From Rickettsiales bacterium (GTDB lineage Bacteria; Pseudomonadota; Alphaproteobacteria; Rickettsiales; UBA1997), in contig JANRKR010000056.1 of assembly GCA_033763375.1 (NCBI GenBank), positions 1 through 46,777 on the forward strand: a stretch of 46,777 nt of DNA, read 5' to 3'. The position numbers and the translations under genes are program-made. The notes beneath the pieces were generated by a model, which made no database searches, was not told where the DNA came from, and was given only the letters and a program-made list of their open reading frames with translations. Below, one piece after another: positions 1,758 through 37,028 of the stretch (position 1 is its first letter; every line of letters starts with the position of its first letter).

Positions 1758-3639
1758 GAAATTTGATGTAATTGTTATTGGTGGCGGACATGCTGGCGTT
1801 GAGGCAGCTTGCGCTGCGGCGCGAGTTGGTTCTGAAGTTTTATTGATTACTAAATCGCCACAAAATCTTGGTGAGATGTCTTGCAATCCTGCAATCGGTG
1901 GCGTTGCCAAAGGAACAATTGTTAAAGAAATTGATGCGCTCGATGGAATAATGGCAAAAGCAATTGATGAAGCCGGAATTCACTTTCGTATTTTAAACGC
2001 TTCCAAAGGTGCCGCAGTTCATTCGCCCAGAGCGCAAGCTGATCGCAAGCTTTACAAAAAAGCCATCAACAAAATTTTACAAAATTATCCTAATCTTAAA
2101 ATTATTTTTGGTGCGGTTGAAGATATCGCTGTTGTTGATGGTAAAGTTGAGGCGTTAATTTTGGCTGACGGAAAAAAATTTTTTTGCAAAAACATTATCC
2201 TAACTACCGGAACATTCTTGCGTGGCATGATTCACATTGGTGATCAAAAAACGCCAGCGGGAAGAGTTGGTGAAGCGCCATCACACGGAATTTCAAAAAC
2301 TTTAGAACAACATAATTTTATTTTAGGGCGTCTTAAAACCGGAACGCCACCTAGAATTTTAAAAAGCTCAATTGATTTTTCAAAACTTGAAGAACAGCCA
2401 GGCGATAATCCGCCGCAGCCATTTTCTTATTTAAATGATGAAATTAAAGTGGCGCAAATCTCTTGTTTTATAACTTATACCAATATCAAAACTCATCAGA
2501 TTATCAAAAATAATTTAGATAAATCGGCGATGTATGGCGGATATATTTCTGGCGTTGGTCCAAGATATTGCCCGTCAATTGAAGATAAAGTTCATCGTTT
2601 TTTTGATAAAGATCGTCATCAAATTTTTTTAGAACCAGAAGGTTTGGAAAGTGATTTAATTTATCCAAATGGCATTTCTACCTCGCTGCCGCTTAATGTA
2701 CAAATTGAATTTTTGCACACAATTCCCGGTTTAGAAAATTGTCAAGTTACGCAAGCTGGCTATGCTATTGAATATGATTTTGTTGATCCGCGCCAATTAT
2801 TACCAACGCTGGAAACTAAAAAAATTCGTGGTTTGTTTTTTGCTGGACAAATCAATGGAACAACTGGTTATGAAGAAGCGGCAGGACAAGGAATTGTCGC
2901 TGGAATTAACGCCGCGCTGCGTAGTAAAAATTCTCAAGAAGAATTTATTTTAGATCGATCAGAAAGTTATATTGGCGTAATGATTGATGATTTAACCACA
3001 TTTGGAACTTCTGAACCTTATCGTATGTTGACTTCGCGTGCGGAATATCGTTTAAGTTTGCGTGCTGATAATGCTGATTTACGTTTGACTGAAAAAGGCA
3101 TCAAATTTGGTTGTGTTGGTTTTGAGCGTGCTGAAATTTTTAAAAATAAAAAAGAAAAAATTCTGCAAGCGACAGAATTTTTACAAGAGCTGAAAATTTC
3201 ACCAAATAAATTAAGTAATTTTGGCGTTACGATTAAGCAAGATGGAGTTGTGCGCAACGCCTTACAATTATTATCTTTTCCTGAAATAAATTTTGACGTT
3301 TTAGAAAAAATCTGGCCACAAATTGCCAAAGAAAATTCTCGAATTGGGGCGAGGTTAAAAAATCAAATTGCAATCAATGCAATTTACAGTTCTTACTTGC
3401 AACGCCAAGAACAAGATTTACAGATTTTTCGTAAAGAAGAAAACATGAAAATTCCTCTTGATCTTGACTATAACAACATCCAAAGTCTTTCTAGTGAAGT
3501 AAAAGAAAAGCTTGGCAAGTGGCGTCCAGCAACGATTGGTGCCGCTTCCAAAATTCAAGGAATCACTCCTGCAGCAATTATGGCAGTGATGATTTATGTC
3601 AAAAATAATTCTGTTAAAAATTTTAGAGAAAATAAATAA
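1750..3639 (+). CDS. mnmG: tRNA uridine 5-carboxymethylaminomethyl modification enzyme MnmG (GidA)
   Basis: [19 protein letters not shown]-binding start, [53 protein letters not shown]. Confidence 0.98.
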
Positions 3640-10208: not shown

Positions 10209-11006
10209 TTAAGCTTTGCGATCGGCAATTGCTTGCTTAATTTCAGCAATTGCTTTTGCTGGATTCAAGCCTTTTGGACAAGCATTGGCACAGTTCATAA
10301 TTGTATGACAACGATAAAGTTTGAAAGGATCTTCAAGTGCGTCAAGCCTTTCTTCGGTAGCTTCATCGCGTGAATCAGCAATCCAACGTTGTGCTTGTAA
10401 TAAAATTGCTGGTCCTAAATATTTATCAGAATTCCACCAATAGCTTGGGCAAGAAGTTGAACAGCAAGCGCACATAATACATTCATAAAGCCCGTCGAGT
10501 TTTTCGCGATCTTTAGGAGATTGTAATCTTTCTTTATTTGGATTTTGTGGCGCTTCAGCTTGCAGCCAAGGTTTGATTGATTTATGCTGTTCGTAAAAGT
10601 GAGTTAAATCAGGAACCAAATCTTTAATGACCGGCATGTGCGGCAATGGATAGATTTTTACATTAATGCTTTTGCAATCTGAAACTGCTTTTGTGCAAGC
10701 TAATGTATTGGTGCCGTCAATATTCATGGCGCACGAGCCGCAAATTCCTTCGCGACAAGATCTGCGAAAAGTAAGTGATGAATCATAATCAGATTTAATT
10801 TTGATCAGCGCGTCCAAAACCATTGGTCCGCAATCATCAAGATCAATTTCAAATTTATCGATATGCGGATTTTTTTTCTCAATATCTTCTGGATCATAAC
10901 GATAAACTTCAAAAATGCGGACATTTTTTGCACCAGCTTTGGCTTTAAAAATTTTACCAGCTTTTTTGTCAATTTGTGAATTTTTTGGAAGTGTAATTTC
11001 TGCCAT
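10209..11006 (-). CDS. sdhB: Succinate dehydrogenase iron-sulfur subunit
   Basis: [51 protein letters not shown]. Confidence 0.98.
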
Positions 11007-11130: not shown

Positions 11131-11676
11131 TTAGATATCGACCAGTATTACGTAAACTGGTACCGCGGGAAAATGTCGTTTTAATCTTTCAATATCATAA
11201 ACTAGCTGCTCCCCATAAGAAACTCCGCTAGACATTTGTTGTTGTAAATTATGGCAAGGAACTATTTCAACTCCGACATCAGCCTTGTTTTCATTAAAGA
11301 AATATTGAAATTTTGCCATATCATAAAACATAAAAGCATATTTGCCGAACTGTACTTCAACCAACACTTTTTCTTTTACAAAATCAATTTGTTTGAAAGA
11401 GCCTTTTATTATTTTTTGATAATTTGGAATTTTAATATCGTAAGTATCTCGTAATTCTTTATAACCTTTTTTATTAAATTGATCTTTAAATTTTTTATTA
11501 AGCTCAACTGGCGAATAAAGCATCTCGCCAGACATGGTTTTTTCTTTGCTAATTTTATTTTTTTCTATTTTTTTTATGGAAAAAATAGAATCTTTGATTT
11601 CTTTGTAAATTTTTGGGTGATCGACTTGAAGGATTTGTTTTCCGCCAAGATGAGAATATTCATAAATAATTTTCAT
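11131..11676 (-). CDS. Type II restriction endonuclease, BglII/BstYI family
   Basis: N-terminal MKIIYEYSHLGG and catalytic segment QIDFVKEKVLVEVQFGKYAFMFYD (D...E-V-Q signature of BglII/BstYI enzymes); overlaps the methyltransferase 3' end. Start placed at the internal ATG (the ORF track starts at 11688). Confidence 0.85.
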   Translation of the reverse strand: MKIIYEYSHLGGKQILQVDHPKIYKEIKDSIFSIKKIEKNKISKEKTMSGEMLYSPVELNKKFKDQFNKKGYKELRDTYDIKIPNYQKIIKGSFKQIDFVKEKVLVEVQFGKYAFMFYDMAKFQYFFNENKADVGVEIVPCHNLQQQMSSGVSYGEQLVYDIERLKRHFPAVPVYVILVDI

Positions 11677-12547
11677 ATCTTTTATCAAACAGATCGTTTT
11701 GTTTTATAATCAAAGGCTCTTTATATATCTCTTTTTTCATAGACCTAATTTTTGCTTCATCATTGAGTGCTGACTCTATTCTTTTTTTTGCAATTTTAAT
11801 GTATTTATTTTCTATCTCAGAGCCAGCGCATCGTCTTTTGTGAATTAACGCTGCAACAAAAGTTGTTCCAGAACCAGCAAATGGGTCTAAAACTAAATCA
11901 TCAGTTTTTGTCATTGATAAAATTAGTCTTTCAACCAGCTCAACAGGAAATTGGCAAGGGTGACTGGTTTTTTCGACATGATTATTTTTTACATTTGGTA
12001 TTTCCCAAATATCAGACGGATTTTTGCCAAGTGGATTACAAGATAGCTGACCTTTTTTTAAGCCTTTGAAGTATTTTTTATTAGGATATTTCTGAGGAAT
12101 TCTTATTGGGTCAAGATTAAAAAAATAGTTTTTTGTTTTAGTGAACCAGTTTATTGTTTCGTAGCGTCCAGAAAGTCTTTTTTGGGCATGAAGACCATGA
12201 CCAAAATGCCATATTATTCTGTTTCTCATTTGCATACCAAGTTCAGAAAATATTGGATAGATCAATGTGTCTATAGGAATTATTTGTCCTGAATCAATAT
12301 AATTGCCAACCTGCCAGCAAATACTTCCTTCATCTTTTAAAATTCTATGGCACTCGCCTATTACTTTTTTTTGAAACTCTAAATATTTTTCTATTTTAAT
12401 CTTTTTTTCATATTCTTTTCCAACATTGTAAGGCGGAGAAGTAACTACTAGCTGAGTCGATTTGTCTGGAATTTTTTTTAAAAAATCCAGGCAATCTCCT
12501 TCGTAAAGAGTAACGATATTTTTATAAGAAAAATTTTCGTAAATCAT
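11660..12547 (-). CDS. Site-specific DNA methyltransferase, N4/N6 family, beta class (probably m4C)
   Basis: GDCL, motif IV VTSPPYN before motif I LDPFAGSGTT, GKNPSDIW, HPCQFPVELVERLI. Confidence 0.93.
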   Translation of the reverse strand: MIYENFSYKNIVTLYEGDCLDFLKKIPDKSTQLVVTSPPYNVGKEYEKKIKIEKYLEFQKKVIGECHRILKDEGSICWQVGNYIDSGQIIPIDTLIYPIFSELGMQMRNRIIWHFGHGLHAQKRLSGRYETINWFTKTKNYFFNLDPIRIPQKYPNKKYFKGLKKGQLSCNPLGKNPSDIWEIPNVKNNHVEKTSHPCQFPVELVERLILSMTKTDDLVLDPFAGSGTTFVAALIHKRRCAGSEIENKYIKIAKKRIESALNDEAKIRSMKKEIYKEPLIIKQNDLFDKRYENYL

Positions 12548-14356
12548 TTAATAAACCCGTTTTTTTGGAGGAAAAGCCTGAACATCGTTGCTCAAAGGCT
12601 TTAGAACCACTTCGCGATAATCGATTTTGGTTTTTCCTGCATTATCGCACCACATGATTGAATGTTTTAGCCAGTTTTCGTCATCACGATCTTTAAAGTC
12701 GTCGCGCGCTTGTGCACCGCGGCTTTCTTTACGATTCAGAGCGCAAGCAATTGTAACCAAAGCTTGCGAACGTAAATTATCAAGTTCAAGTGCTTCAATT
12801 AAATCGCTATTCCAAATAAGACCGCGATCTTCGATTTTAAGATCTGCAAAACTTGCAAAAATATCATGCATTTTTTCTAAGCCTTTTTTCATTGAATCTT
12901 CAACTCTAAAAACTGCGGCGTGACTTTGCATACAATGTTGCATTTCGCTTCTGATTTTGGCGGTAGAATTTTTACCATTTGAATTTCTGATTTTATCAAA
13001 TCTTTGTAGTGATTCTTCGCCGGCATTGGCTTGAAGTTCAGCTTGCGTAGCGTTTGGTTTAACAATTTCAGCAGCGCGAATTGCAGCAGCGCGACCAAAA
13101 ACCACTAAATCCAGAAGTGAGTTTGAGCCCAAACGATTAGCGCCGTGAACCGAAACACAAGCTGCTTCGCCAATTGCCATAAGTCCTGGAACAATTTCAG
13201 TTTTGCCATTTTTAACGGTTAAAACTTCAGCCTTAAAATTAGTTGGAATACCGCCCATATTATAGTGAACCGTTGGCAGAACCGGAATTGGTTGTTTGGT
13301 AACGTCAACGCCAGCAAAGATTTTAGCGGTTTCAGAAATGCCAGGAAGTCTTTCGTGAAGAACTTTTGGATCTAGATGATTTAAGTGTAAATAAATGTGA
13401 TCTTTTTTAGGACCAACGCCGCGTCCAGCAAGAATTTCCATGGTCATAGCGCGTGAAACTACGTCACGACTGGCTAAATCTTTGGCACTTGGTGCGTAGC
13501 GTTCCATAAATCTTTCACCTTCAGAATTAACTAAATAGCCACCTTCGCCGCGCGCACCTTCAGTAATTAAGCAGCCCGAGCCATAAACTCCGGTTGGATG
13601 AAATTGCACAAATTCCATATCTTGTAGCGGCAAGCCAGCGCGTAAAACCATGGCATTGCCGTCACCGGTGCAAGTGTGCGCCGAAGTAGCAGAAAAATAA
13701 GCGCGACCATAACCGCCAGTTGCAAGAATAACTAATTGACCTTTGAAACGATGAATTGAGCCATCAACCATTGAAAAAGCTGTAACGCCGCGGCAAATTC
13801 CATTTTCCATAATCAAATCAAGCGCGAAATATTCGATAAAAAATTGGGCGTTATGTTTTAGCGATTGTTGATAAAGCGTGTGTAAGATTGCATGTCCGGT
13901 GCGATCAGCTGCGGCGCAAGTTCTTTGTGCGGGTCCGCCTTCGCCGTATTTTTTGGTCATGCCGCCAAAAGGACGTTGATAAATTTTACCGTCCCCGGTG
14001 CGAGAAAAAGGCACGCCGTAATGTTCAAGTTCAATGATTGCATCAATTGCTTCGCGACACATATATTCAATTGCATCTTGGTCGCCCAACCAGTCAGAAC
14101 CTTTGATGGTGTCATACATATGCCAGCGCCAGTCGTCTTCACCCATATTTCCTAAAGCGGCAGAAATTCCACCTTGCGCTGCAACAGTGTGCGAGCGAGT
14201 TGGAAACACTTTTGAAATGCAAGCAGTTGAAAGACCTTTTTGTGCCATACCAAAAGTAGCGCGAAGTCCAGCGCCGCCAGCGCCAACAACGATCACATCA
14301 AATTCATGGTCAATAATATTATAATTTGCGATTTTTGTCTCTGTCATTTTATCCAA
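12548..14356 (-). CDS. sdhA: Succinate dehydrogenase flavoprotein subunit
   Basis: [51 protein letters not shown]. Confidence 0.98.
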
Positions 14357-21154: not shown

Positions 21155-21664
21155 ATGAAACTTAATCTTCGCACAATTCTTGTTTTGGCTCTAATTCCTT
21201 TTATTTCTTCTTGCGCCTTTTTTAATGGCAAAAAAGTTGATGTTGCAATTAATAGCACTCCGTCAGGAGCTGATGTTTTTATTGAAGGCAAAAACTATGG
21301 CAGAACTCCTTTAACTTTAAACATAGAGCCTAAGCCTTACAATGCAGTTTTGGTTAAAGAAGGTTATGGTTCGACAAATTTGAATATGGAAATTTGGTGG
21401 GGCACAATCAGAACTAACATCAATGGCGAAAGAACCGGCGACGGCACCAGATGTTTCTTGGATATGATGACTTTAATATTTTCTTTCAACATGTATAACA
21501 AAGAAAGATGCGGTGATTTTAAAGAAAAAACTTATAATGTTGTAATTCCAAAAAGTGGCAATTTTTCTAAAAACTCAACAATGAGTGTCGGACAAAATCC
21601 AGGCGATATGGTTCCTTACTATTACAATCAGGATCTGAAAAAAAATCGTGGCTTGGCAAGATAA
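21155..21664 (+). CDS. PEGA-domain lipoprotein
   Basis: Lipobox ISSC after a hydrophobic signal; INSTPSGADVFIEGKNYGRTP...LVKEGY PEGA-like motif. Confidence 0.8.
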   Translation: MKLNLRTILVLALIPFISSCAFFNGKKVDVAINSTPSGADVFIEGKNYGRTPLTLNIEPKPYNAVLVKEGYGSTNLNMEIWWGTIRTNINGERTGDGTRCFLDMMTLIFSFNMYNKERCGDFKEKTYNVVIPKSGNFSKNSTMSVGQNPGDMVPYYYNQDLKKNRGLAR

Positions 21665-29098: not shown

Positions 29099-29530
29099 AT
29101 GAAAATTTTTTTTTACAGCTTTTTTTTAATTTTGATTTTGTCTTCTTGTATAAGAAACACCGAGCGCAATGGCTATTTATTTGATTTATCTGATTATCAG
29201 CTTTTACAAGAAGGCATAACCAGCAAAGAAAGAGTTTTGAAAATTATGGGTTCTCCTACAATTATTTCTAATTTAGATGTTGATGAAACTTGGATTTATT
29301 ATGCGGAAAGCATTGATCATATTTTATTTTTCTTGCCCAAAATTAATGACAGAAAAATTATAGCTTTAAAATTTGATGCCGATCAAACAGTTAGAAGTAT
29401 TGAAAATATTGATTTAACGCATGAAAATCAAAAAATGCATTTTGTCAGTAATTACACCGAAGTTAGCAGCAATAAAATTGGATTCTTTAAATCACTTTTC
29501 AGCAATGTTGGACAAGTTAAAGCACAATAA
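29099..29530 (+). CDS. bamE: Outer membrane protein assembly lipoprotein BamE (SmpA/OmlA)
   Basis: Lipobox LSSC; NGY; GITSKERVLKIMGSPT; TWIY; ALKFD. Confidence 0.85.
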   Translation: MKIFFYSFFLILILSSCIRNTERNGYLFDLSDYQLLQEGITSKERVLKIMGSPTIISNLDVDETWIYYAESIDHILFFLPKINDRKIIALKFDADQTVRSIENIDLTHENQKMHFVSNYTEVSSNKIGFFKSLFSNVGQVKAQ

Positions 29531-29870: not shown

Positions 29871-30734
29871 TTAAATCAAGCGCCAAGCTGATTGATCTTT
29901 GAATAATTCGTGAAGAATTTTATTGTTGATAGTATGACCGGTTTTTACGCCAGTGAATTGACCAGCAATGTAGTAGCCGGCAAGATAAATATCGCCGATA
30001 AAATCAAGAGTTTTATGACGAACTAATTCATCTTCATAGCGCCAGCCTTCTTCATTAACAATTCCATCTTCGCCAATCAAAATAGCGTTTTTCATCGATC
30101 CGCCTTTAGCTAAACCCATTTTGTATAATTGTTCAATTTCATGTTTAAAACCAAAGGTGCGGGCGCGACATAAATCATTTTTGAATGATGCAAAAGTAGT
30201 TTTATAATCGAAACTCTGCTTTTTTATATGTTTGTGATCAAAGTCGATATGAAGAGTAATTGAAAAATCAATTGCCGGTTTTACCTCAATTGATTTGCCG
30301 TCATCTTCTTCAACTTTAACAGTTTTCAATACTTCAATAATATGGCGAGTTTTTTCTTGAATATTGATACCGGCGCATTCAATCAGAAATACAAAAGGTT
30401 CAGAACTGCCGTCCATAATTGGCACTTCAGCGCCATCAATATCAATAAATAAATTATCGATACCACAACCCCAAATTGCCGCCATTAAATGTTCGATAGT
30501 GGAAACTTTAGTGCCAAATTCATTAGCCAAAGTTGTGCCCAAGTTGGTGGTAACAACATTTTTGTAATTAGCTTTAATCAAAGATTTCTCTGGCGCAACG
30601 TCGGTTCTACGAAAAACAATGCCGTTATCTTGCGGCGCTGGAATTAAAGTTATAGTAGCGTCATGACCAGAGTGCAAGCCAACGCCGGTGCAGCTTATTT
30701 TGCTATTAATAGTTTTTTGAGAAGAGATGAACAT
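29871..30734 (-). CDS. lpxC: UDP-3-O-acyl-N-acetylglucosamine deacetylase
   Basis: GVGLHSG, STIEHLMAA, EVPIMDGSS, ARTFGF, RHKTLDFIGD, GH. Confidence 0.97.
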   Translation of the reverse strand: MFISSQKTINSKISCTGVGLHSGHDATITLIPAPQDNGIVFRRTDVAPEKSLIKANYKNVVTTNLGTTLANEFGTKVSTIEHLMAAIWGCGIDNLFIDIDGAEVPIMDGSSEPFVFLIECAGINIQEKTRHIIEVLKTVKVEEDDGKSIEVKPAIDFSITLHIDFDHKHIKKQSFDYKTTFASFKNDLCRARTFGFKHEIEQLYKMGLAKGGSMKNAILIGEDGIVNEEGWRYEDELVRHKTLDFIGDIYLAGYYIAGQFTGVKTGHTINNKILHELFKDQSAWRLI

Positions 30735-30788
30735 AAAATTATAGAAATTATGAAACTAATTAGGTTTGCAAACGGGTTATAACATTAT

Positions 30789-30930
30789 GGCGCTGTCGCA
30801 AATCCTATCTTTTGCTGTAAATTTTGTTGTTGATTCATTTTTTTGCTCCTCATGGATGTCTATATCCACTGCGTCGCCAAAAAATGAATCGCCTAAAAAT
30901 TTTTTGCAAAAGCGGATTTGCGACAGCGCC
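30789..30930. mobile_element. 142-bp MITE / RPE-like palindromic element with a 5-bp target duplication
   Basis: Perfect 17-bp terminal IR GGCGCTGTCGCAAATCC/GGATTTGCGACAGCGCC, further pairing CTTTTGC/GCAAAAG and GATTCATTTTTT/AAAAAATGAATC, central TGGAT...ATCCA stem; flanked by ATTAT on both sides (30784-30788, 30931-30935). Confidence 0.8.
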
Positions 30931-30935
30931 ATTAT

Positions 30936-31631
30936 CTACAAAAAGTTACTGATTTTTTCTTTGCTCCAGGGAAATTTTGCCGCATTTCTTCTATTAATCA
31001 AAAAAGTTTTGCAGATTAAATCGTAAGCAGTGGTTTTTCTTTTGCTGATAATTTGAATTTGTGTCCACAATAAAAATATAATTCCTAAAAATATATTCAG
31101 CCAGGAAGCGGTAACGGTTTGATAAAAATTAATATTATGCTGAATCTGATAACCAAGAAGATACATGATAAAAACAAATGGCATTACCGATAAAAAATAA
31201 TGCATTAAAGCTTTATTAAAACCAAGAGTTGAACCATTTTCCTTGATAATTACAATATTCATTATGCGTTTGCCGATCGTTGCTTGCCAAGCTGAAGAGT
31301 TTAACAATGCGTGATAAAGTGCGCCAACAAAAATTACGGTAGCGTAAAAAAATAGCGCGATAAGAAAAATGCGATGATGAGTAACAAAGCTGATATGATC
31401 GGCATTATTTTTTACAAAATCAGTGCCAAATTTTTCTTTAAATTCAGCTAAAAATTTTTGAATTTCCAAATTAACAAAAAGTAATCCTAAAATTTGTGCC
31501 GTAAAAATACGCAGAAATAAAACAATCGTAATATCAATTCCACCAGCAACAGCGCGAGAGAAAGATTTAGCGTAAATTTTATCTACAGTTTTCTGAGTTA
31601 AAAAATTTGTAAATAATTTTTCAATGTTCAT
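30936..31631 (-). CDS. RDD-family membrane protein
   Basis: YAKSFSRAVAGGID, SSAWQATIGKRIMNIVI, YDLICKT (R-D-D pattern); several TM helices. Confidence 0.8.
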   Translation of the reverse strand: MNIEKLFTNFLTQKTVDKIYAKSFSRAVAGGIDITIVLFLRIFTAQILGLLFVNLEIQKFLAEFKEKFGTDFVKNNADHISFVTHHRIFLIALFFYATVIFVGALYHALLNSSAWQATIGKRIMNIVIIKENGSTLGFNKALMHYFLSVMPFVFIMYLLGYQIQHNINFYQTVTASWLNIFLGIIFLLWTQIQIISKRKTTAYDLICKTFLINRRNAAKFPWSKEKISNFL

Positions 31632-32577
31632 AGCCTGATTTTTTAATAGTTATTTTATGATTTTTTTGATCAAATAAAGTTACGCTAAACTTTTTATTAG
31701 TTGCTTTAACAAAGCTGCCAATGCAAGTCAGATCAAGTTTTAAATTTTGTGCTAATTGTAAAATTTTTTGATGATTCTTTGGATTTACAGCAAAAATTAA
31801 TTCATAATCATCACCGCCACAGATTAAATCGGTAATTTTTATTTGAGAGTTATTTTGCAAAGTTTTTTTTGCCGCTTCAGAAAACGGCACTTTATCTAAA
31901 AAAATTTCAGCACTAACTTGTGAAGATTGGCAAATATGGTTTAAATCAGCCAGCAAGCCATCAGAAACATCAATTGCACATCGCGAAAGATTTTTATCCA
32001 ATAATTGTTTTCCCAACTCAACTCGCGGCGATGGCAAAAAATGTCGTTGTTGCAAATATTTATTTTTAATTCCTTTTAAACCCAAAAAAGCGTCGCCAAT
32101 TGTTCCGGAAACAAAAATTAAATCACCATCTTGCGCCTGATTACGCAGTAAAATTTTACCTTTTTTAATAATACCAAAAATTGTAATTGAGAAAAAAAGT
32201 TTTTTTGCTGCAACGGTATCGCCACCAATTAAAGACAGCTGAAATTGATCTTGAACTGATTTTAATCCACTAACAAATTGGCGTAAAAATCTGGCATCGG
32301 TATAATTATTTTTAGAAAATCCTAATAAATAATGAAGTGGCTTCGCACCAGATGCAGCAAGGTCAGAAATGTTGGTAAGCAGAAGTTTTGCTGCAATTTT
32401 AGCAACATTTTGCGATCTTAAAAAGTGAACATCTTCAACAAAAATATCTTTACTAACGACTAATTCTTCATCTGCTTTTAATTTTATTTTTGCTACGTCG
32501 TCTTGAAGATTTTGCGCAGCTTGGTGACTTTTGGTTAAAGGTTTAAAATATTTTTCAATCAGCTGAAATTCTCTCAT
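31621..32577 (-). CDS. thiL: Thiamine-monophosphate kinase
   Basis: MREFQLI, DDVA, VEDVHF, NISDLAASGA, LIGGDT, VSGTIGDA, IDVSDGLLADL, GGDDYEL. Confidence 0.95.
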   Translation of the reverse strand: MREFQLIEKYFKPLTKSHQAAQNLQDDVAKIKLKADEELVVSKDIFVEDVHFLRSQNVAKIAAKLLLTNISDLAASGAKPLHYLLGFSKNNYTDARFLRQFVSGLKSVQDQFQLSLIGGDTVAAKKLFFSITIFGIIKKGKILLRNQAQDGDLIFVSGTIGDAFLGLKGIKNKYLQQRHFLPSPRVELGKQLLDKNLSRCAIDVSDGLLADLNHICQSSQVSAEIFLDKVPFSEAAKKTLQNNSQIKITDLICGGDDYELIFAVNPKNHQKILQLAQNLKLDLTCIGSFVKATNKKFSVTLFDQKNHKITIKKSGYEH

Positions 32578-33317
32578 AATTTAAAATCAACAATCACGCC
32601 ATTTTCGATAAAACGATTGAGCAAAGTTCCAATATCGAAAGTTTTTTTATTTTCTTTGCAGAGAATTTTATATATTTCGTAAAGCTTTTTTCCTTGTCGT
32701 ATTTTGATTAAAAACAAAAATTCTATTTTACTAAGTTCAATAATTCTTCCGTTGTATATCAGCATGAATTCTGCCTTGGTAAAGTTTTTTATTTTTTTTT
32801 CTTGTCGCCAAATTGAATAAATCGCCAATTTTGTCTTAAATAAAGTAACACGATCGTCAACATTAAAAGTTAAATCAGAAAAATCTTTTTGGGTAATTTT
32901 TTTAAATTTTTTTAGGTCAAATTTTTTTCTTCTTTCGTCAAAAAAATAAGAATGATGATGTAAAAGTTCTAACTGCGCTAAATCTTTTAAATATAATGGT
33001 TTACATGATTTTATAAATTGTGGAAATTTTTTACCAAATTCGTTTAAATCGCCACTTTTAGAAGGAAATTTTTGGCAATATTTTTTGGCTAATTCGCAAA
33101 AATTTTTTTCACCCAAAATTTTTTTTGTTACCAAAAAAATTGACGATAAAACTGCAATAAAATTTCCCAAAACATTATTGCGATAAATGTCTAAGCGAGC
33201 AAGCGCTTCAAGGTTTGGATGTAAAATTTCTTGCAGAATTTCTTGATCAGATTTGCTAAAAATATGTTTAGCAAATTGCTGTTGAGTTTTGATCAGGCTA
33301 GAGTTTTTTTTGCTCAT
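32574..33317 (-). CDS. DUF2063-family partner protein (HvfC/BufC-like peptide-recognition partner of MNIO enzymes)
   Basis: QQQFAKHI...RLDIYRNNV...LSSIFLVTKKILGEKNF...FPSKSGDLNEFGKKFPQFI...YLKDLAQLE; directly downstream of and overlapping DUF692. Confidence 0.85.
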   Translation of the reverse strand: MSKKNSSLIKTQQQFAKHIFSKSDQEILQEILHPNLEALARLDIYRNNVLGNFIAVLSSIFLVTKKILGEKNFCELAKKYCQKFPSKSGDLNEFGKKFPQFIKSCKPLYLKDLAQLELLHHHSYFFDERRKKFDLKKFKKITQKDFSDLTFNVDDRVTLFKTKLAIYSIWRQEKKIKNFTKAEFMLIYNGRIIELSKIEFLFLIKIRQGKKLYEIYKILCKENKKTFDIGTLLNRFIENGVIVDFKL

Positions 33318-34179
33318 TTTCTAAAATCTTTTTAGCTTTTTTTGATTCGCCAAGTAACACTTCAAAGTCTGGAAAGTCTTGATCCCATTCTATTAAAGAA
33401 GGAACTTTGCCAAAAATTTCTATAGCCATTTTATAAATTTGCCACACTTGTGAATTGACCAAATTATTGTGAGTGTCGATAAGAATTTTTTTATGTTTTT
33501 TGCCGTCAAAAATTTCTGATTGAGAATGTCCGGCTAAATGAATTTCTTTAACAATTTTTTTATTAAGTTTTTTTAGATAATTTATTGGTTCAAACTGAGC
33601 GCAATTTTGCCAACTAACAAAAATATTGTTTACATCTAAAAGCAAAGCGCAGCCAGTTTTAGCGGTGATTTCATTGATAAAATCAGCTTCAGACATTTCT
33701 GATTTTTTAAAAGCTAAATAAGCAGAAGGATTTTCAATCAGAATTTGAGATTTGAGAAAATCCTGCATTTGTAAAATATTATCTGTAATTGCCTGCAATG
33801 ATTCTTTGGTGTAAGGTAAAGGCAACAAGTCATTGAGATGATTTTTGTTAATTCTTCCCCAAGAAATATGATCAGAAATTAAAAAAGGTTGAGTAATTTC
33901 GGCTAAAGCTTTTAGTTTTTTTAAATGGTTTAAATCAAGTTTTTGAGAGGATCCAAGCGAGTTTCCAACTGAATGCAAGCTGAGAGGAAAATCTTGGCGA
34001 ATTGTGATTAAATTTTTTACGGCGACGCTGTTTAGATCGTAATAATTTTCACTGTGGATTTCGATCCAGCCGATTTTTTTTGAGATTTTTCGAGGATTTT
34101 TTAGAAAGTGTGGAACATATTGAGATCTAAGCCCAACTCCGGCTAGATTTGACGGAGTTGGAACTTTTTTAAAACTCAT
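33298..34179 (-). CDS. DUF692 multinuclear non-heme iron oxidative enzyme (MNIO; MbnB/TglH/ChrH/HvfB/BufB family)
   Basis: GVGLR, WIEIHSENY, LSLHSVGNSLG, ISDHISW, DLLPLPYT, LIENPSAY, LLLDVNN, EIHLAGH, IDTH, LIEWD. Confidence 0.93.
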   Translation of the reverse strand: MSFKKVPTPSNLAGVGLRSQYVPHFLKNPRKISKKIGWIEIHSENYYDLNSVAVKNLITIRQDFPLSLHSVGNSLGSSQKLDLNHLKKLKALAEITQPFLISDHISWGRINKNHLNDLLPLPYTKESLQAITDNILQMQDFLKSQILIENPSAYLAFKKSEMSEADFINEITAKTGCALLLDVNNIFVSWQNCAQFEPINYLKKLNKKIVKEIHLAGHSQSEIFDGKKHKKILIDTHNNLVNSQVWQIYKMAIEIFGKVPSLIEWDQDFPDFEVLLGESKKAKKILENEQKKL

Positions 34180-34189
34180 AAGACTAAAA

Positions 34190-34480
34190 TTAGTTTTTAG
34201 TTTCTTCAGTTTTAGTTTCTTCTTTTTTTACAGCAGATTTTTTATGTTTTTTGCTTTTGGTTTTAGAAGCGCATTTATTAGCTTCATCTTTCATTGCTGA
34301 ACATTTGTGAGCTTCATCTTTTTTGCCAGAGCATTTGTGAGCTTCATCTTTTTTAGCAGCGCAGCCATTTTTAGCGCCACAGAAATTAGCTTCGCTTTTG
34401 CCACCAAAATGTGAACAAGAAGCAACAAGGCTAAGAGTTGCTATACCAGCAGCAACTGATTGTAAGAATTTTTTATTCAT
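34190..34480 (-). CDS. Putative RiPP precursor: Cys-repeat lipoprotein
   Basis: Signal MNKKFLQSVAAGIATLSLVAS|C22; Cys at 34, 40, 50, 60, 70; three 10-aa repeats KKDEAHKCSG / KKDEAHKCSA / MKDEANKCAS; 10 bp upstream of DUF692. Confidence 0.85.
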   Translation of the reverse strand: MNKKFLQSVAAGIATLSLVASCSHFGGKSEANFCGAKNGCAAKKDEAHKCSGKKDEAHKCSAMKDEANKCASKTKSKKHKKSAVKKEETKTEETKN

Positions 34481-34657
34481 AGAATTTACCTATAATTTTA
34501 GATTATTTTGGATAGAAAAGCGAGTCATTGGTGATGTAATTGCCGCGGCAAATTATTTAGTAAATTTGACTTGTCAATTGTCTGTTGGAAATTCTAATCT
34601 AAATTAGCTTTGGTTAAAAACTTTAGTTAAAAACAAATTCAAATAAATTCTTTCAAA

Positions 34658-35866
34658 ATGATTAAAGAGCAATTTTTAAATAATATTAAATCCGAGTTAG
34701 AAGCTTTAAAAACAAGCGGTCTTTATAAAAATGAATATGAAATTATAACGCCACAATCTTCGGCAATTGAGATAAATTATTCTTCAGTAAAAAAATCGGT
34801 TCTTAATTTTTGTGCGAATAACTATTTGGGTTTGGCTAATAATAAAAGTTTGATTGAAATAGCTAAGAAATCACTTGATGAATATGGTCTTGGAACTGCT
34901 TCAGTGCGCTTTATTTGTGGTACTTTTGACCTGCATAAAACTTTTGAAAAAAAGCTTAGCGAATTTTTAGGATTTGAAGATGTTATAACATTTTCATCCT
35001 GTTTTGCTGCAAATGGTGCGGTTTTTTCAGCGCTTTTTGATGAACAAGATGCAATTATTTCAGCTGATTTAAATCACGCCAGTTTGATTGACGGAATCAG
35101 ATTATGCAAAGCAGCGCGCTATTTTTATAAATTTGACGATATGTTGGATTTAGAAAAAAAGTTACAAGAAGCGCAAAAAAATAAAACTCGTGTGATTGTT
35201 ACCGATGGCGTATTTTCAATGGATGGAGACATTGCTAAATTAAATGAAATTTGTGATTTGGCAGAAAAATATGATGCTTTGGTTTTGGTTGATGATTCTC
35301 ACGCTACCGGATTTATTGGTGAAAATGGCAGAGGAACTCTTGAATATTGTGGCGTTGAAGGTCGCGTTGATATTTTAACTTCAACGCTCGGTAAAGCTTT
35401 GGGCGGCGCTGGCGGTGGATTTATTGCTTCAAAAAAAGAAATAATTGAAAAGTTGCGCAATAAATCGCGTCCATATCTTTTTTCTAATAATATTTTACCT
35501 TTAGTTGCAGCTGTTGGAATTGAAATTCTTGACATGATTATTGATTCAAAAACTTTGATCAAAAAACTGAGTCAAAACACAACTTATTTTAGAGAGAAAA
35601 TGTTAGCAGCCGGTTTTGATTTACGTGATAAAAACGCTGTTCATCCTGTTGTGCCGGTAATGCTTAATGATGAAATTTTGGCAAGTAAATTTGCTAAAAT
35701 GATGATTGAAGAAGGAATTTATGTAATTGCTTTTTCTTTTCCGGTTGTGCCAAAAAATCAAGCGCGTATTCGTGTGCAAATTTCAGCGGCGCATGAAAAA
35801 GATCATTTAGATTCAGCAATTGCTGCTTTTATAAAAGTAGGAAAAAAGCTTAATGTAATAAATTAA
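34658..35866 (+). CDS. kbl: Glycine C-acetyltransferase (2-amino-3-ketobutyrate CoA ligase)
   Basis: LNFCANNYLGLA, ASVRFICGT, LNHASLIDGIRLCKA, TDGVFSMDG, DDSHATG, TLGKALGGAGGG, ARIRVQISAAH. Confidence 0.95.
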   Translation: MIKEQFLNNIKSELEALKTSGLYKNEYEIITPQSSAIEINYSSVKKSVLNFCANNYLGLANNKSLIEIAKKSLDEYGLGTASVRFICGTFDLHKTFEKKLSEFLGFEDVITFSSCFAANGAVFSALFDEQDAIISADLNHASLIDGIRLCKAARYFYKFDDMLDLEKKLQEAQKNKTRVIVTDGVFSMDGDIAKLNEICDLAEKYDALVLVDDSHATGFIGENGRGTLEYCGVEGRVDILTSTLGKALGGAGGGFIASKKEIIEKLRNKSRPYLFSNNILPLVAAVGIEILDMIIDSKTLIKKLSQNTTYFREKMLAAGFDLRDKNAVHPVVPVMLNDEILASKFAKMMIEEGIYVIAFSFPVVPKNQARIRVQISAAHEKDHLDSAIAAFIKVGKKLNVIN

Positions 35867-35897: not shown

Positions 35898-37028
35898 ATG
35901 AAAAATCCACGCCACTTTTTAAAAGAATTTAATTTATATTTTTTGATAATTCTTTTTGCGCTCACTTCCTGCAAAACTACTGAAGAAAGAATGCAGAAAA
36001 ATCTTCATTCAACTTGGCAAGAATATTTTCAAAAAACTTTTGATCAAACAGCACCAATTGAAGTTTTAGTTGTAACTAACCGTAATTCTAAAGATCAATT
36101 TTTTAGCTGCGAAGATAGTCAGTTTGGCGTTGAAGTTAATCAGGATTTAAAATTGGGGGATTTAAAATTTGGTATTTGTAAAATTAATGTTCCAAAAAAT
36201 CATATTGTTGGCGAAATAGAATTTGCCAAAGATAAAAAACAATCAGAACAAAATTTCTTTAAAATTTTAGATAGTAAAGCTTTGCAAGAAAAAGATTTTT
36301 TTGTTGAAGCTAAAAAGATCAAACGCCAAGCTTTAGTTTTTGTTCATGGTTTTAATGTGCGTTATCAGGAAGCAGTTTTGCGTGCAGCTCAAATTGCTTA
36401 CGACTTAAAATATCAGGGCGCAGTTATTCTTTTTACTTGGCCGGCTGGCGCGAAAGAAGGATTTTTAGCAGATAAAATGCTTAATAAAACCTATGCTGAT
36501 AATGCTAAAAATGCTGCTGATTCAATTCTGGCTTTTAAAAATTTTTTACTAACTCTGCAAAAAAACGATATTAAAATTAATTTGATAGTTCATTCGATGG
36601 GTCATCAAGTTGTGCTTCCGGCTTTACAACTGATTTCTGAATCTTATCCGCAAAAAACTTTGATCAGTAATTTAATTTTAAATGCGCCGGATTTTGAAAT
36701 TGGCCAATTTCGTAAGTTCGCGCCAAATCTTAAAAAAGTTAGTGATCATACCACGCTTTATTGCTCACAAAATGATAAAGCGATGATAGCTTCTAAAAGT
36801 TTCAATAATAATGATCGTCTTGGTGCTTGTGCTTTTATTGAAGAAATTGACGTAATAAATGTCGGCGAAATTGACAATTCAACTTTAGGTTTGGGACATG
36901 GTTATTATTCTTCACGACCAATTTTGTCCGATGTTTTTCAAACTCTTTTAGGAATTGACGCAAACAAAAGATTGTTTGTAGCTAAATCTGATTCAAATGG
37001 TTTAGATAAATATTTTTTGCGTAGATAA
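35898..37028 (+). CDS. Alpha/beta hydrolase lipoprotein (DUF900-like)
   Basis: Lipobox LTSC; VTNR; VFVHGFNV; FTWPA; VHSMG nucleophile elbow; NAPD; GHGYY. Confidence 0.82.
   Translation: MKNPRHFLKEFNLYFLIILFALTSCKTTEERMQKNLHSTWQEYFQKTFDQTAPIEVLVVTNRNSKDQFFSCEDSQFGVEVNQDLKLGDLKFGICKINVPKNHIVGEIEFAKDKKQSEQNFFKILDSKALQEKDFFVEAKKIKRQALVFVHGFNVRYQEAVLRAAQIAYDLKYQGAVILFTWPAGAKEGFLADKMLNKTYADNAKNAADSILAFKNFLLTLQKNDIKINLIVHSMGHQVVLPALQLISESYPQKTLISNLILNAPDFEIGQFRKFAPNLKKVSDHTTLYCSQNDKAMIASKSFNNNDRLGACAFIEEIDVINVGEIDNSTLGLGHGYYSSRPILSDVFQTLLGIDANKRLFVAKSDSNGLDKYFLRR

Follow-up and report, generated by a model that had tools for sequence, protein, structure and literature searches.

The question raised by this locus is whether the product of a small gene directly upstream of an MNIO gene could be a modified peptide and a membrane-anchored lipoprotein at the same time, i.e. 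whether MNIO-modified cysteines and a diacylglyceryl-cysteine anchor could occur in one and the same chain, as an earlier sequence-only reading of this DNA had proposed. The gene lies in a window of 46.8 kb (46,777 nucleotides), by which we mean the whole stretch of DNA analysed, from a Rickettsiales bacterium; the remainder of this window is devoted to ordinary chromosomal housekeeping at 34% G+C. As set out below, we regard it as likely, with a probability of about 0.72, that the 96-aa protein serves as precursor to a lipid-anchored modified peptide of the bufferin/captophorin type, a so-called 'DAG-RiPP'.

Features of the precursor gene and its neighbourhood

The precursor gene and its product can be divided into the following segments:

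34190..34480, minus strand: precursor gene, a 96-aa ATG ORF plus stop, encoding signal peptide, Cys core and Lys-rich tail
34418..34480, minus strand: signal peptide, residues 1-21, with K3 and K4 in the n-region, an uncharged h-region and V19-A20-S21
34415..34417, minus strand: TGT codon of Cys22, where diacylglycerol would be attached and the mature lipopeptide is predicted to begin
34271..34381, minus strand: core, residues 34-70, with the C34-x5-C40 pair followed by the K-C units C50, C60 and C70, predicted MNIO targets
34271..34363, minus strand: 30-bp tandem repeat in 3.1 copies, coding for 10-residue K-C units
34193..34264, minus strand: Lys-rich, low-complexity C-terminal tail, residues 73-96, from the translation

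The translated ORF starts with a short basic region (Lys3 and Lys4) and continues through an uncharged stretch (F5-A20) into the lipobox V19-A20-S21-C22 with Ser23 at +2, which agrees with the L-V-A-S/C22 motif and the Ser at +2 described in the sequence-only reading. The Cys repeats and the Lys-rich tail described there were likewise recovered, as five cysteines are found beyond Cys22, at residues 34, 40, 50, 60 and 70, and the final 24 of the 96 residues form the tail. Counted from Cys22, the mature precursor would comprise 75 residues, including 20 Lys, 4 His, 8 Glu and 3 Asp with zero Arg. A 30-bp duplication had been named as the origin of the repeats, and Tandem Repeats Finder placed 3.1 copies of a 30-bp unit, with 83% matches, at 34271-34363, which corresponds to three 10-residue units, each with K-C at its end; a 23-mer inside the repeat occurs exactly twice on the plus strand (34302-34324 and 34332-34354) and in none of 100 shuffles. 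The structure predicted for the precursor in the ESM Atlas is disordered (pLDDT 0.35), and an ESM Atlas search with the precursor yielded unnamed clusters only. Comparison with Pfam and NCBIfam gave zero family matches for the precursor, and inspection of the whole 96-aa sequence showed the EGKCG motif to be absent. A scan of positions 30700-34800 for promoters and terminators gave counts no higher than in shuffles, and a search for sequencing runs covering 32574-34620 returned none, from RNA or otherwise.

Downstream of the precursor, four genes follow on the same strand:

33298..34179, minus strand: MNIO (DUF692) of BufB type, 293 aa (PF05114, 6.4e-92; NF050167)
32574..33317, minus strand: DUF2063 partner (BufC / PME1 type), 247 aa (PF09836, 78.4 bits vs cut-off 27.2)
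31621-32577, minus strand: thiL-like gene, overlapping its upstream neighbour by 4 nt
30936-31631, minus strand: RDD-family gene, overlapping its upstream neighbour by 11 nt

The precursor gene is separated from the MNIO gene by 10 nt, while the MNIO and DUF2063 genes overlap by 20 nt. The assignment of the enzyme to the BufB type follows from model NF050167 (MNIO_BufB), with which it reached 328.3 bits (cut-off 310); the HvfB model remained below its cut-off (215 vs 360), as did the HvfC-family model applied to the DUF2063 protein (37.7 vs 142). The closest solved structure to the MNIO is PDB 3BWW (5.9e-37), and an alignment of 36 sequences shows no variation in the MNIO columns for His, Asp and Glu. 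Inspection of the translations revealed no signal peptide in either the MNIO or the DUF2063 protein. Upstream of the precursor lies a divergent kbl-like aminotransferase gene. The order precursor-MNIO-DUF2063 (A-B-C) recurs in related loci, and the extended order, with divergent kbl followed by precursor-MNIO-DUF2063-thiL-rdd, recurs across the genus. The thiL and rdd genes still follow the precursor at sites that have no MNIO pair, and the thiL-like and RDD-family genes are probably co-transcribed housekeeping genes outside the pathway. Neither a Lactamase_B_2 nor a DoxX gene is present at the locus, and a search of the 97%-complete genome for DoxX (PF07681) gave no hit. DoxX (BufD) is frequent in bufferin clusters and not obligatory, buf2 clusters being without it. 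The genome also encodes a CopA-like frame and a multicopper-oxidase-like gene. In another part of the window, a BglII-like restriction endonuclease and an N4/N6 DNA methylase (11131-12547, minus strand) lie between the succinate dehydrogenase genes for the iron-sulfur protein (10209-11006) and the flavoprotein (12548-14356).

Conservation of the predicted lipoprotein signal

The sequence-only reading had relied on the pattern [LVI][ASTVI][GAS]C, which fits the window precursor and 36 of 55 homologues; the other 19 carry Ala at -3 and Leu at -4 and follow a broader rule only. As the narrow pattern covers no more than these 36, lipoboxes were scored with a broader PROSITE-type rule, which applies to all homologues (55/55) retrieved from a collection of 5.8 billion clusters. 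A profile search of 1.84 billion protein representatives returned only 51 clusters (50% identity) at E-values up to 0.001, showing that the precursor family is small, and the same rule held for 51/51 of these distant cluster representatives despite their widely differing cores. The queries of both searches contain the signal peptide, so that both homologue sets may favour members that have retained it. A less circular count was obtained from 32 unique species-level genes that were fetched via their first eight residues alone, a motif that leaves the lipobox outside. Cys occupies position 22 in 32/32 of these genes, encoded by TGC as well as TGT, and the flanking residues (A, I, L, T or V at -3; A, S or T at -2; A or S at -1; A, H, N or S at +2) are all lipobox-allowed, while pN/pS for codons 2-23 across the 32 genes amounts to 0.40. 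For a separate, lipobox-selected set of 31 genes, the Cys22 codon is TGC in 22 and TGT in 9. The signal-peptide columns of the homologue alignment are invariant or almost so. Conservation of C22 and the lipobox in homologues, which had been put forward as a check on the lipoprotein proposal, thus came out in its favour.

The machinery that would act on such a signal is available, as Lgt, LspA, Lnt, LolA and LolCE are all encoded in the genome (1.5 Mb, 97% complete) with scores above curated cut-offs. A crude census of the genome found 45 of 1368 ORFs to conform to the lipobox rule, with Ser as the commonest residue both at -1 (29/45) and at +2 (14/45). Ser-Cys lipoboxes also occur in three other proteins encoded on the plus strand of the window, namely a DUF900 hydrolase (35898-37028), BamE (29099-29530) and a PEGA-domain protein (21155-21664), and illustrate the liking of this genome for Ser at -1. 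Because the lipobox is conserved and the Lgt, LspA, Lnt and Lol components are encoded, the 96-aa precursor is, as judged from its sequence, very probably a lipoprotein.

Core cysteines and possible selectivity sites of the MNIO

The family is characterised by a C-x5-C pair, decapeptide repeats of the form [HN]-K-C-[SA] and a lysine tail. In the homologue alignment, C34 is invariant, and C40 and C50 are conserved in at least 90% of sequences. The first two core cysteines show C-x5-C spacing in 53/55 homologues, and distant relatives with C-x4-C exist, e.g. P0077 and P0094. Core cysteines number between 2 and 9 across the 55 homologues, most often in the contexts KNGCA, ANKCS, SNTCG and AHKCS, and the tails of the homologues have a mean length of 33.6 residues with 36% Lys, most of them with a K-x-N end. 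Of the 206 core cysteines of this set, 201 are followed by S, A or G and 92 are preceded by K. For FonBC substrates, the need for a small residue after Cys and the occurrence of Lys-Cys motifs were described in PMC13097082. With a small residue following and Lys frequently preceding, the core contexts fit these preferences; the S-C-S context of C22 is such that the FonBC rules alone would not bar it as an MNIO substrate either.

The same publication names Arg15/Arg16 and Asp249/Phe250 of FonB as selectivity sites (PMC13097082). The FonB numbering was placed on our MNIO columns by inference, from an alignment that does not include the FonB sequence. Alignment to 3BWW, the H. somni MNIO, gave R-R and D-F for that enzyme, compared with R-S and D-Q for the MNIO of the window. 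Gln267, next to the invariant Asp266, is found in 31/31 MNIOs of the genus, while the position is occupied by A, T or E in five enzymes of sister families and by Phe in 3BWW. Residue 267 may, on these sequence grounds, be the selectivity site equivalent to FonB Phe250.

Within its own genome the precursor is present once, with no second copy, and no DUF2282 gene was found there; the single precursor together with the missing DUF2282 gene leaves the MNIO without another candidate substrate.

Distribution and genomic arrangement of the family

The MNIO was found in 44 of 61 related genomes, including 29 of the 36 other genomes of the genus, and the 31 MNIOs of the genus form one clade (support 100/98) apart from the five sister-family MNIOs. 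The 25 species-level loci of the genus derive from uncultured lake and groundwater MAGs, labelled by their depositors as Rickettsiales, Alphaproteobacteria or, probably wrongly, Rhizobium or Rickettsia typhi. A family member is encoded within 21 of these loci and stands directly before the MNIO gene in 20 (L028 is cut by the contig start), at a distance of 6-18 nt or overlapping it (the distance in L029 was left out). The remaining four MNIO loci (L021, L022, L024 and L027) have no adjacent precursor, which renders the link between enzyme and substrate less than absolute. Taken together, the evidence that the precursor is the substrate of the adjacent MNIO is good but not absolute. In L022, the relocated DUF2063 gene is directly followed by an ORF for a hydrophobic 154-aa protein (3159-3623, plus strand), an apparent membrane protein that might be DoxX-like.

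Precursor and enzyme genes lie apart from each other in three to four species. G021 (L092, 1501-1758), G034 (L090) and G025 (L091) encode a lipobox precursor at the site between kbl and thiL without MNIO or DUF2063, and in L058 the precursor likewise stands directly before thiL with neither enzyme gene in between. The MNIO-DUF2063 pair of G021, G025 and G034 lies at another site, next to a gene with a product of ~270 aa. Genome mining based on gene neighbourhood would miss some members of the family for this reason. The reverse arrangement was observed in L024 (G017), where MNIO and DUF2063 lie beside kbl and the gap of ~160 nt holds no precursor ORF; a profile search of this genome (94% complete, with 8000 bases outside the search) did not find a family member. 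In the basal or divergent loci L018, L025 and L055, precursor, MNIO and DUF2063 lie downstream of the ~270-aa gene and not at the kbl-thiL site, a placement that suggests two chromosomal sites for the cluster, with reciprocal losses.

At the MNIO loci of the sister families, a DUF2282 match lies directly upstream of the enzyme gene in L030 and L034, and a DUF2282-like ORF is found in L032. Both kinds of precursor meet on contig C70 of G009, where a DUF2282 precursor (L076, 1408-1659, plus strand) is convergent with, and just downstream of, the lipoprotein-type cluster L025. Two further sister-family DUF2282 precursors, in L073 (1345-1737, minus strand) and L079 (1456-1743, minus strand), end in C-terminal repeats of the E-G-K-N-[GS]-C type, which resemble the G-A-K-N-G-C element of the window precursor.

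Proposed maturation and alternative explanations

The best-supported reading of the locus remains the one proposed from the sequence alone, in which one peptide would carry both MNIO-modified cysteines and a diacylglyceryl-cysteine anchor: the lipobox is conserved, the lipoprotein machinery is encoded, and MNIO and DUF2063 are adjacent. Family membership and the literature lead us to infer that core cysteines would first be converted into 5-thiooxazoles, by the BufB-type MNIO acting with its DUF2063 partner while the peptide is still in the cytoplasm. The likeliest targets would be the K-C-[S/A] units at C50, C60 and C70, while C34 and C40 may either be targets as well or form a disulfide, by analogy with C38-C43 in HvfA. 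The peptide would then be exported by Sec, whereupon Lgt would add diacylglycerol to Cys22, LspA would cut between Ser21 and Cys22, and Lnt would N-acylate the new N-terminus. LolCE and LolA would probably carry the 75-residue lipopeptide to the outer membrane, a destination suggested by the Ser at +2 and by the presence of both transport components in the genome; as it depends on the sorting rule of E. coli, this is the weakest step of the scheme. At the membrane, the lipopeptide would bind copper or another thiophilic metal, in analogy to bufferins, oxazolin and NedA.

Several features weigh against this scheme, among them the missing match to any bufferin or oxazolin precursor model, the lack of an EGKCG motif, the DoxX gene not found in the genome, and the CopA-like frame and multicopper-oxidase-like gene that the genome already encodes. 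Doubt could also begin at the signal peptide. V-A-S/C is acceptable as a signal-peptidase-I site too, V19-A20-S21 being in keeping with the rule of small residues at -3 and -1. The peptide might then be a soluble periplasmic product like BufA1 or HvfA, with Cys22 kept as one more core cysteine that serves as a ligand, in a disulfide or as an MNIO target, and the founding bufferins and HvfA were indeed reported to be processed by this route (PMC11626156, PMC11252979). Such a signal, however, would hardly account for an entire lipobox kept at a fixed distance from the N-terminus throughout all three homologue sets while the cores diverge widely, and the genome does encode Lgt and LspA. The DUF2282-type precursors of sister families within the same order provide a direct comparison, as their signals end in A-x-A-type sites without Cys at +1 and the lipobox rule applies to 0/30 of them. 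We therefore consider processing by signal peptidase I quite improbable. Even less credence is given to the idea that the MNIO also modifies Cys22, which would block Lgt and LspA and leave the peptide held in the inner membrane by its uncleaved signal peptide. The S-C-S context does resemble the core sites in the small residue that follows Cys, and modification was reported to precede export (PMC13056109), but in lipo-NedABC and lipo-DybAH the N-terminal lipobox Cys was found triacylated, with core motifs explaining the mass changes (PMC13056109), and an unused lipobox would be expected to stray from the allowed residues in at least some members; we regard this scenario as extremely unlikely.

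A more serious objection concerns the enzyme, since the product could be an ordinary small Cys/Lys-rich lipoprotein that is no MNIO substrate at all and owes its position to inherited kbl-thiL synteny. The precursors of G021, G025, G034 and L058 that directly precede thiL without the enzyme genes would be compatible with this, as would the G017 enzyme pair, for which a precursor was not found in the part of the genome searched, and the zero matches of the precursor to family models. Against it, the precursor occupies the bufA position before the MNIO in most of the 25 genus loci, the MNIO-DUF2063 pair is retained elsewhere in the genomes that have the precursor unlinked, the genome from which the window derives has neither a DUF2282 gene nor another precursor copy that could serve as substrate, and the core Cys contexts fit those of known MNIO substrates. 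On balance, a lipoprotein unrelated to the MNIO appears unlikely, and the lipid-anchored, MNIO-modified peptide is retained as the preferred reading.

A wider interpretation is offered as a tentative one, about which we are ourselves rather doubtful. The precursors could constitute a genus-wide family of lipid-anchored captophorins in uncultured freshwater 'Rickettsiales' with reduced genomes, having the anchor signal in every member examined and their own fixed Gln at the selectivity site. Gain and loss of the 30-bp K-C unit (2-9 core Cys) would tune metal capacity, the MNIO-DUF2063 pair would be able to serve in trans, and the outer-membrane lipopeptide would shield the cell from copper at its surface or in the periplasm. 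If such a reading were true, it would place a copper shield in an order whose reference genomes were reported to be depleted in MNIO-PME1 clusters (PMC13097082). If expressed and lipidated as predicted, the peptides would add a third sequence type to the MNIO-modified lipoproteins known from experiment, beside the chryseobasin-like and EGKCG types, one in which the lipid-anchor signal is found in every family member examined and not in a minority. The natural variants of the family, with their unequal numbers of repeats, either His or Asn two positions before Cys, and C-x4-C or C-x5-C spacing, could help to delimit the sites that MNIO enzymes accept from those that are spared. As to how MNIO-modified lipopeptides are made, the family leaves present views as they are.

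Comparison with published MNIO-modified peptides

The expectation that known precursors use ordinary signal peptides holds for HvfA, reported as a signal-peptidase-I substrate (PMC11252979), and for BufA1 and BufA2, for which signal-peptidase-I-cleaved or periplasmic species were described (PMC11626156). It does not extend to about 16% of the Buf2 bufferin precursors, which have predicted lipoprotein signals (Antoine 2025, PMC12452194), nor to DybA and NedA, which were isolated from E. coli membranes in triacylated and MNIO-modified form (Chen 2026 PNAS, PMC13056109). The latter study named such RiPP-lipoprotein hybrids DAG-RiPPs and assigned SPII signals to subsets of bufferins and oxazolins and to 'Cluster X', an uncharacterised group marked by a CxxxxC motif (PMC13056109). 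MNIO genes were moreover noted to be preceded, in hundreds of cases, by small unclassified Cys ORFs that bear a signal (PMC12452194), the structure of oxazolin was revised to a 5-thiooxazole, and bufferins, oxazolin and their relatives were united as captophorins (PMC13097082).

According to the published descriptions, the closest parallels are the DAG-RiPPs lipo-NedABC from Neisseria dentiae and lipo-DybAH from Dyadobacter crusticola, with which the present system shares a precursor with an SPII lipobox and additional cysteines and a cytoplasmic MNIO lacking a signal peptide. The bioinformatic hallmark of a DAG-RiPP, i.e. an MNIO-cluster precursor with an SPII signal and further cysteines, is found here from genes alone. 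NedA, as described, also resembles our precursor in its Lys-Cys motifs and in the combination of an MNIO with a DUF2063-type partner; it differs in having EGKCG repeats, in place of which the present family shows a C-x5-C pair, a long lysine tail and [HN]-K-C-[SA] units that recur every 10 residues, and the MNIO of the window is of the BufB and not of the HvfB type.

With bufferins and captophorins in general, the locus has in common the gene order precursor-MNIO-DUF2063, a Sec signal, a BufB-type enzyme above cut-off and a Cys core. Unlike bufferins, the precursor falls outside the described precursor families, and a DoxX gene was not found in the genome; within the 25 families that the homologues hit most frequently, DUF2282, Buf_6/12Cys and Buf_EGKCG do not appear (0/55). 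The precursor is also predicted to be disordered, whereas BufA1 was modelled as a small folded protein (PMC11626156). A descent from DUF2282 (BufA1) by deletion was considered and found to be unsupported, as hhalign assigned a probability of 65% with signal peptides included and 6% without them. With signal peptides, C34, C40 and C50 had been paired with the first three DUF2282 cysteines; after trimming, the best match moved to the C-terminal Cys-repeat tail of L073, and a score as good was reached in 2 of 100 column shuffles.

HvfA, the oxazolin precursor of Haemophilus influenzae, has a similar layout as far as it is described, with a signal, a Cys pair (C38/C43 there, C34/C40 here), Lys-Cys repeats with a small residue and a length of ~95 aa; its C38-C43 pair was reported as a disulfide and its repeat cysteines as modified (PMC11252979). 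HvfA differs in being a reported signal-peptidase-I substrate with EGKCG repeats and DoxX in its operon. Finally, the CxxxxC family (PMC12452194) and Cluster X (PMC13056109) likewise comprise small, signal-bearing precursors associated with MNIO and DUF2063 that have a close Cys pair, and Cluster X members also carry lipoprotein signals (PMC13056109). Compared by their descriptions only, these groups differ from the present family in spacing, which is C-x5-C in most homologues here and C-x4-C in some relatives, and in that the locus has neither a DoxX nor a Lactamase_B_2 gene; the present family may still coincide with one of these clusters. Full-text searches did not find a paper on the precursor family, which may nevertheless be contained in the supplementary lists of PMC13056109, PMC12452194 and PMC13097082. 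As lipid-anchored MNIO-modified peptides were already published in 2025-2026, the principle is not new; the contribution of the present locus lies in an unmodelled family of precursors from uncultured freshwater bacteria labelled Rickettsiales.
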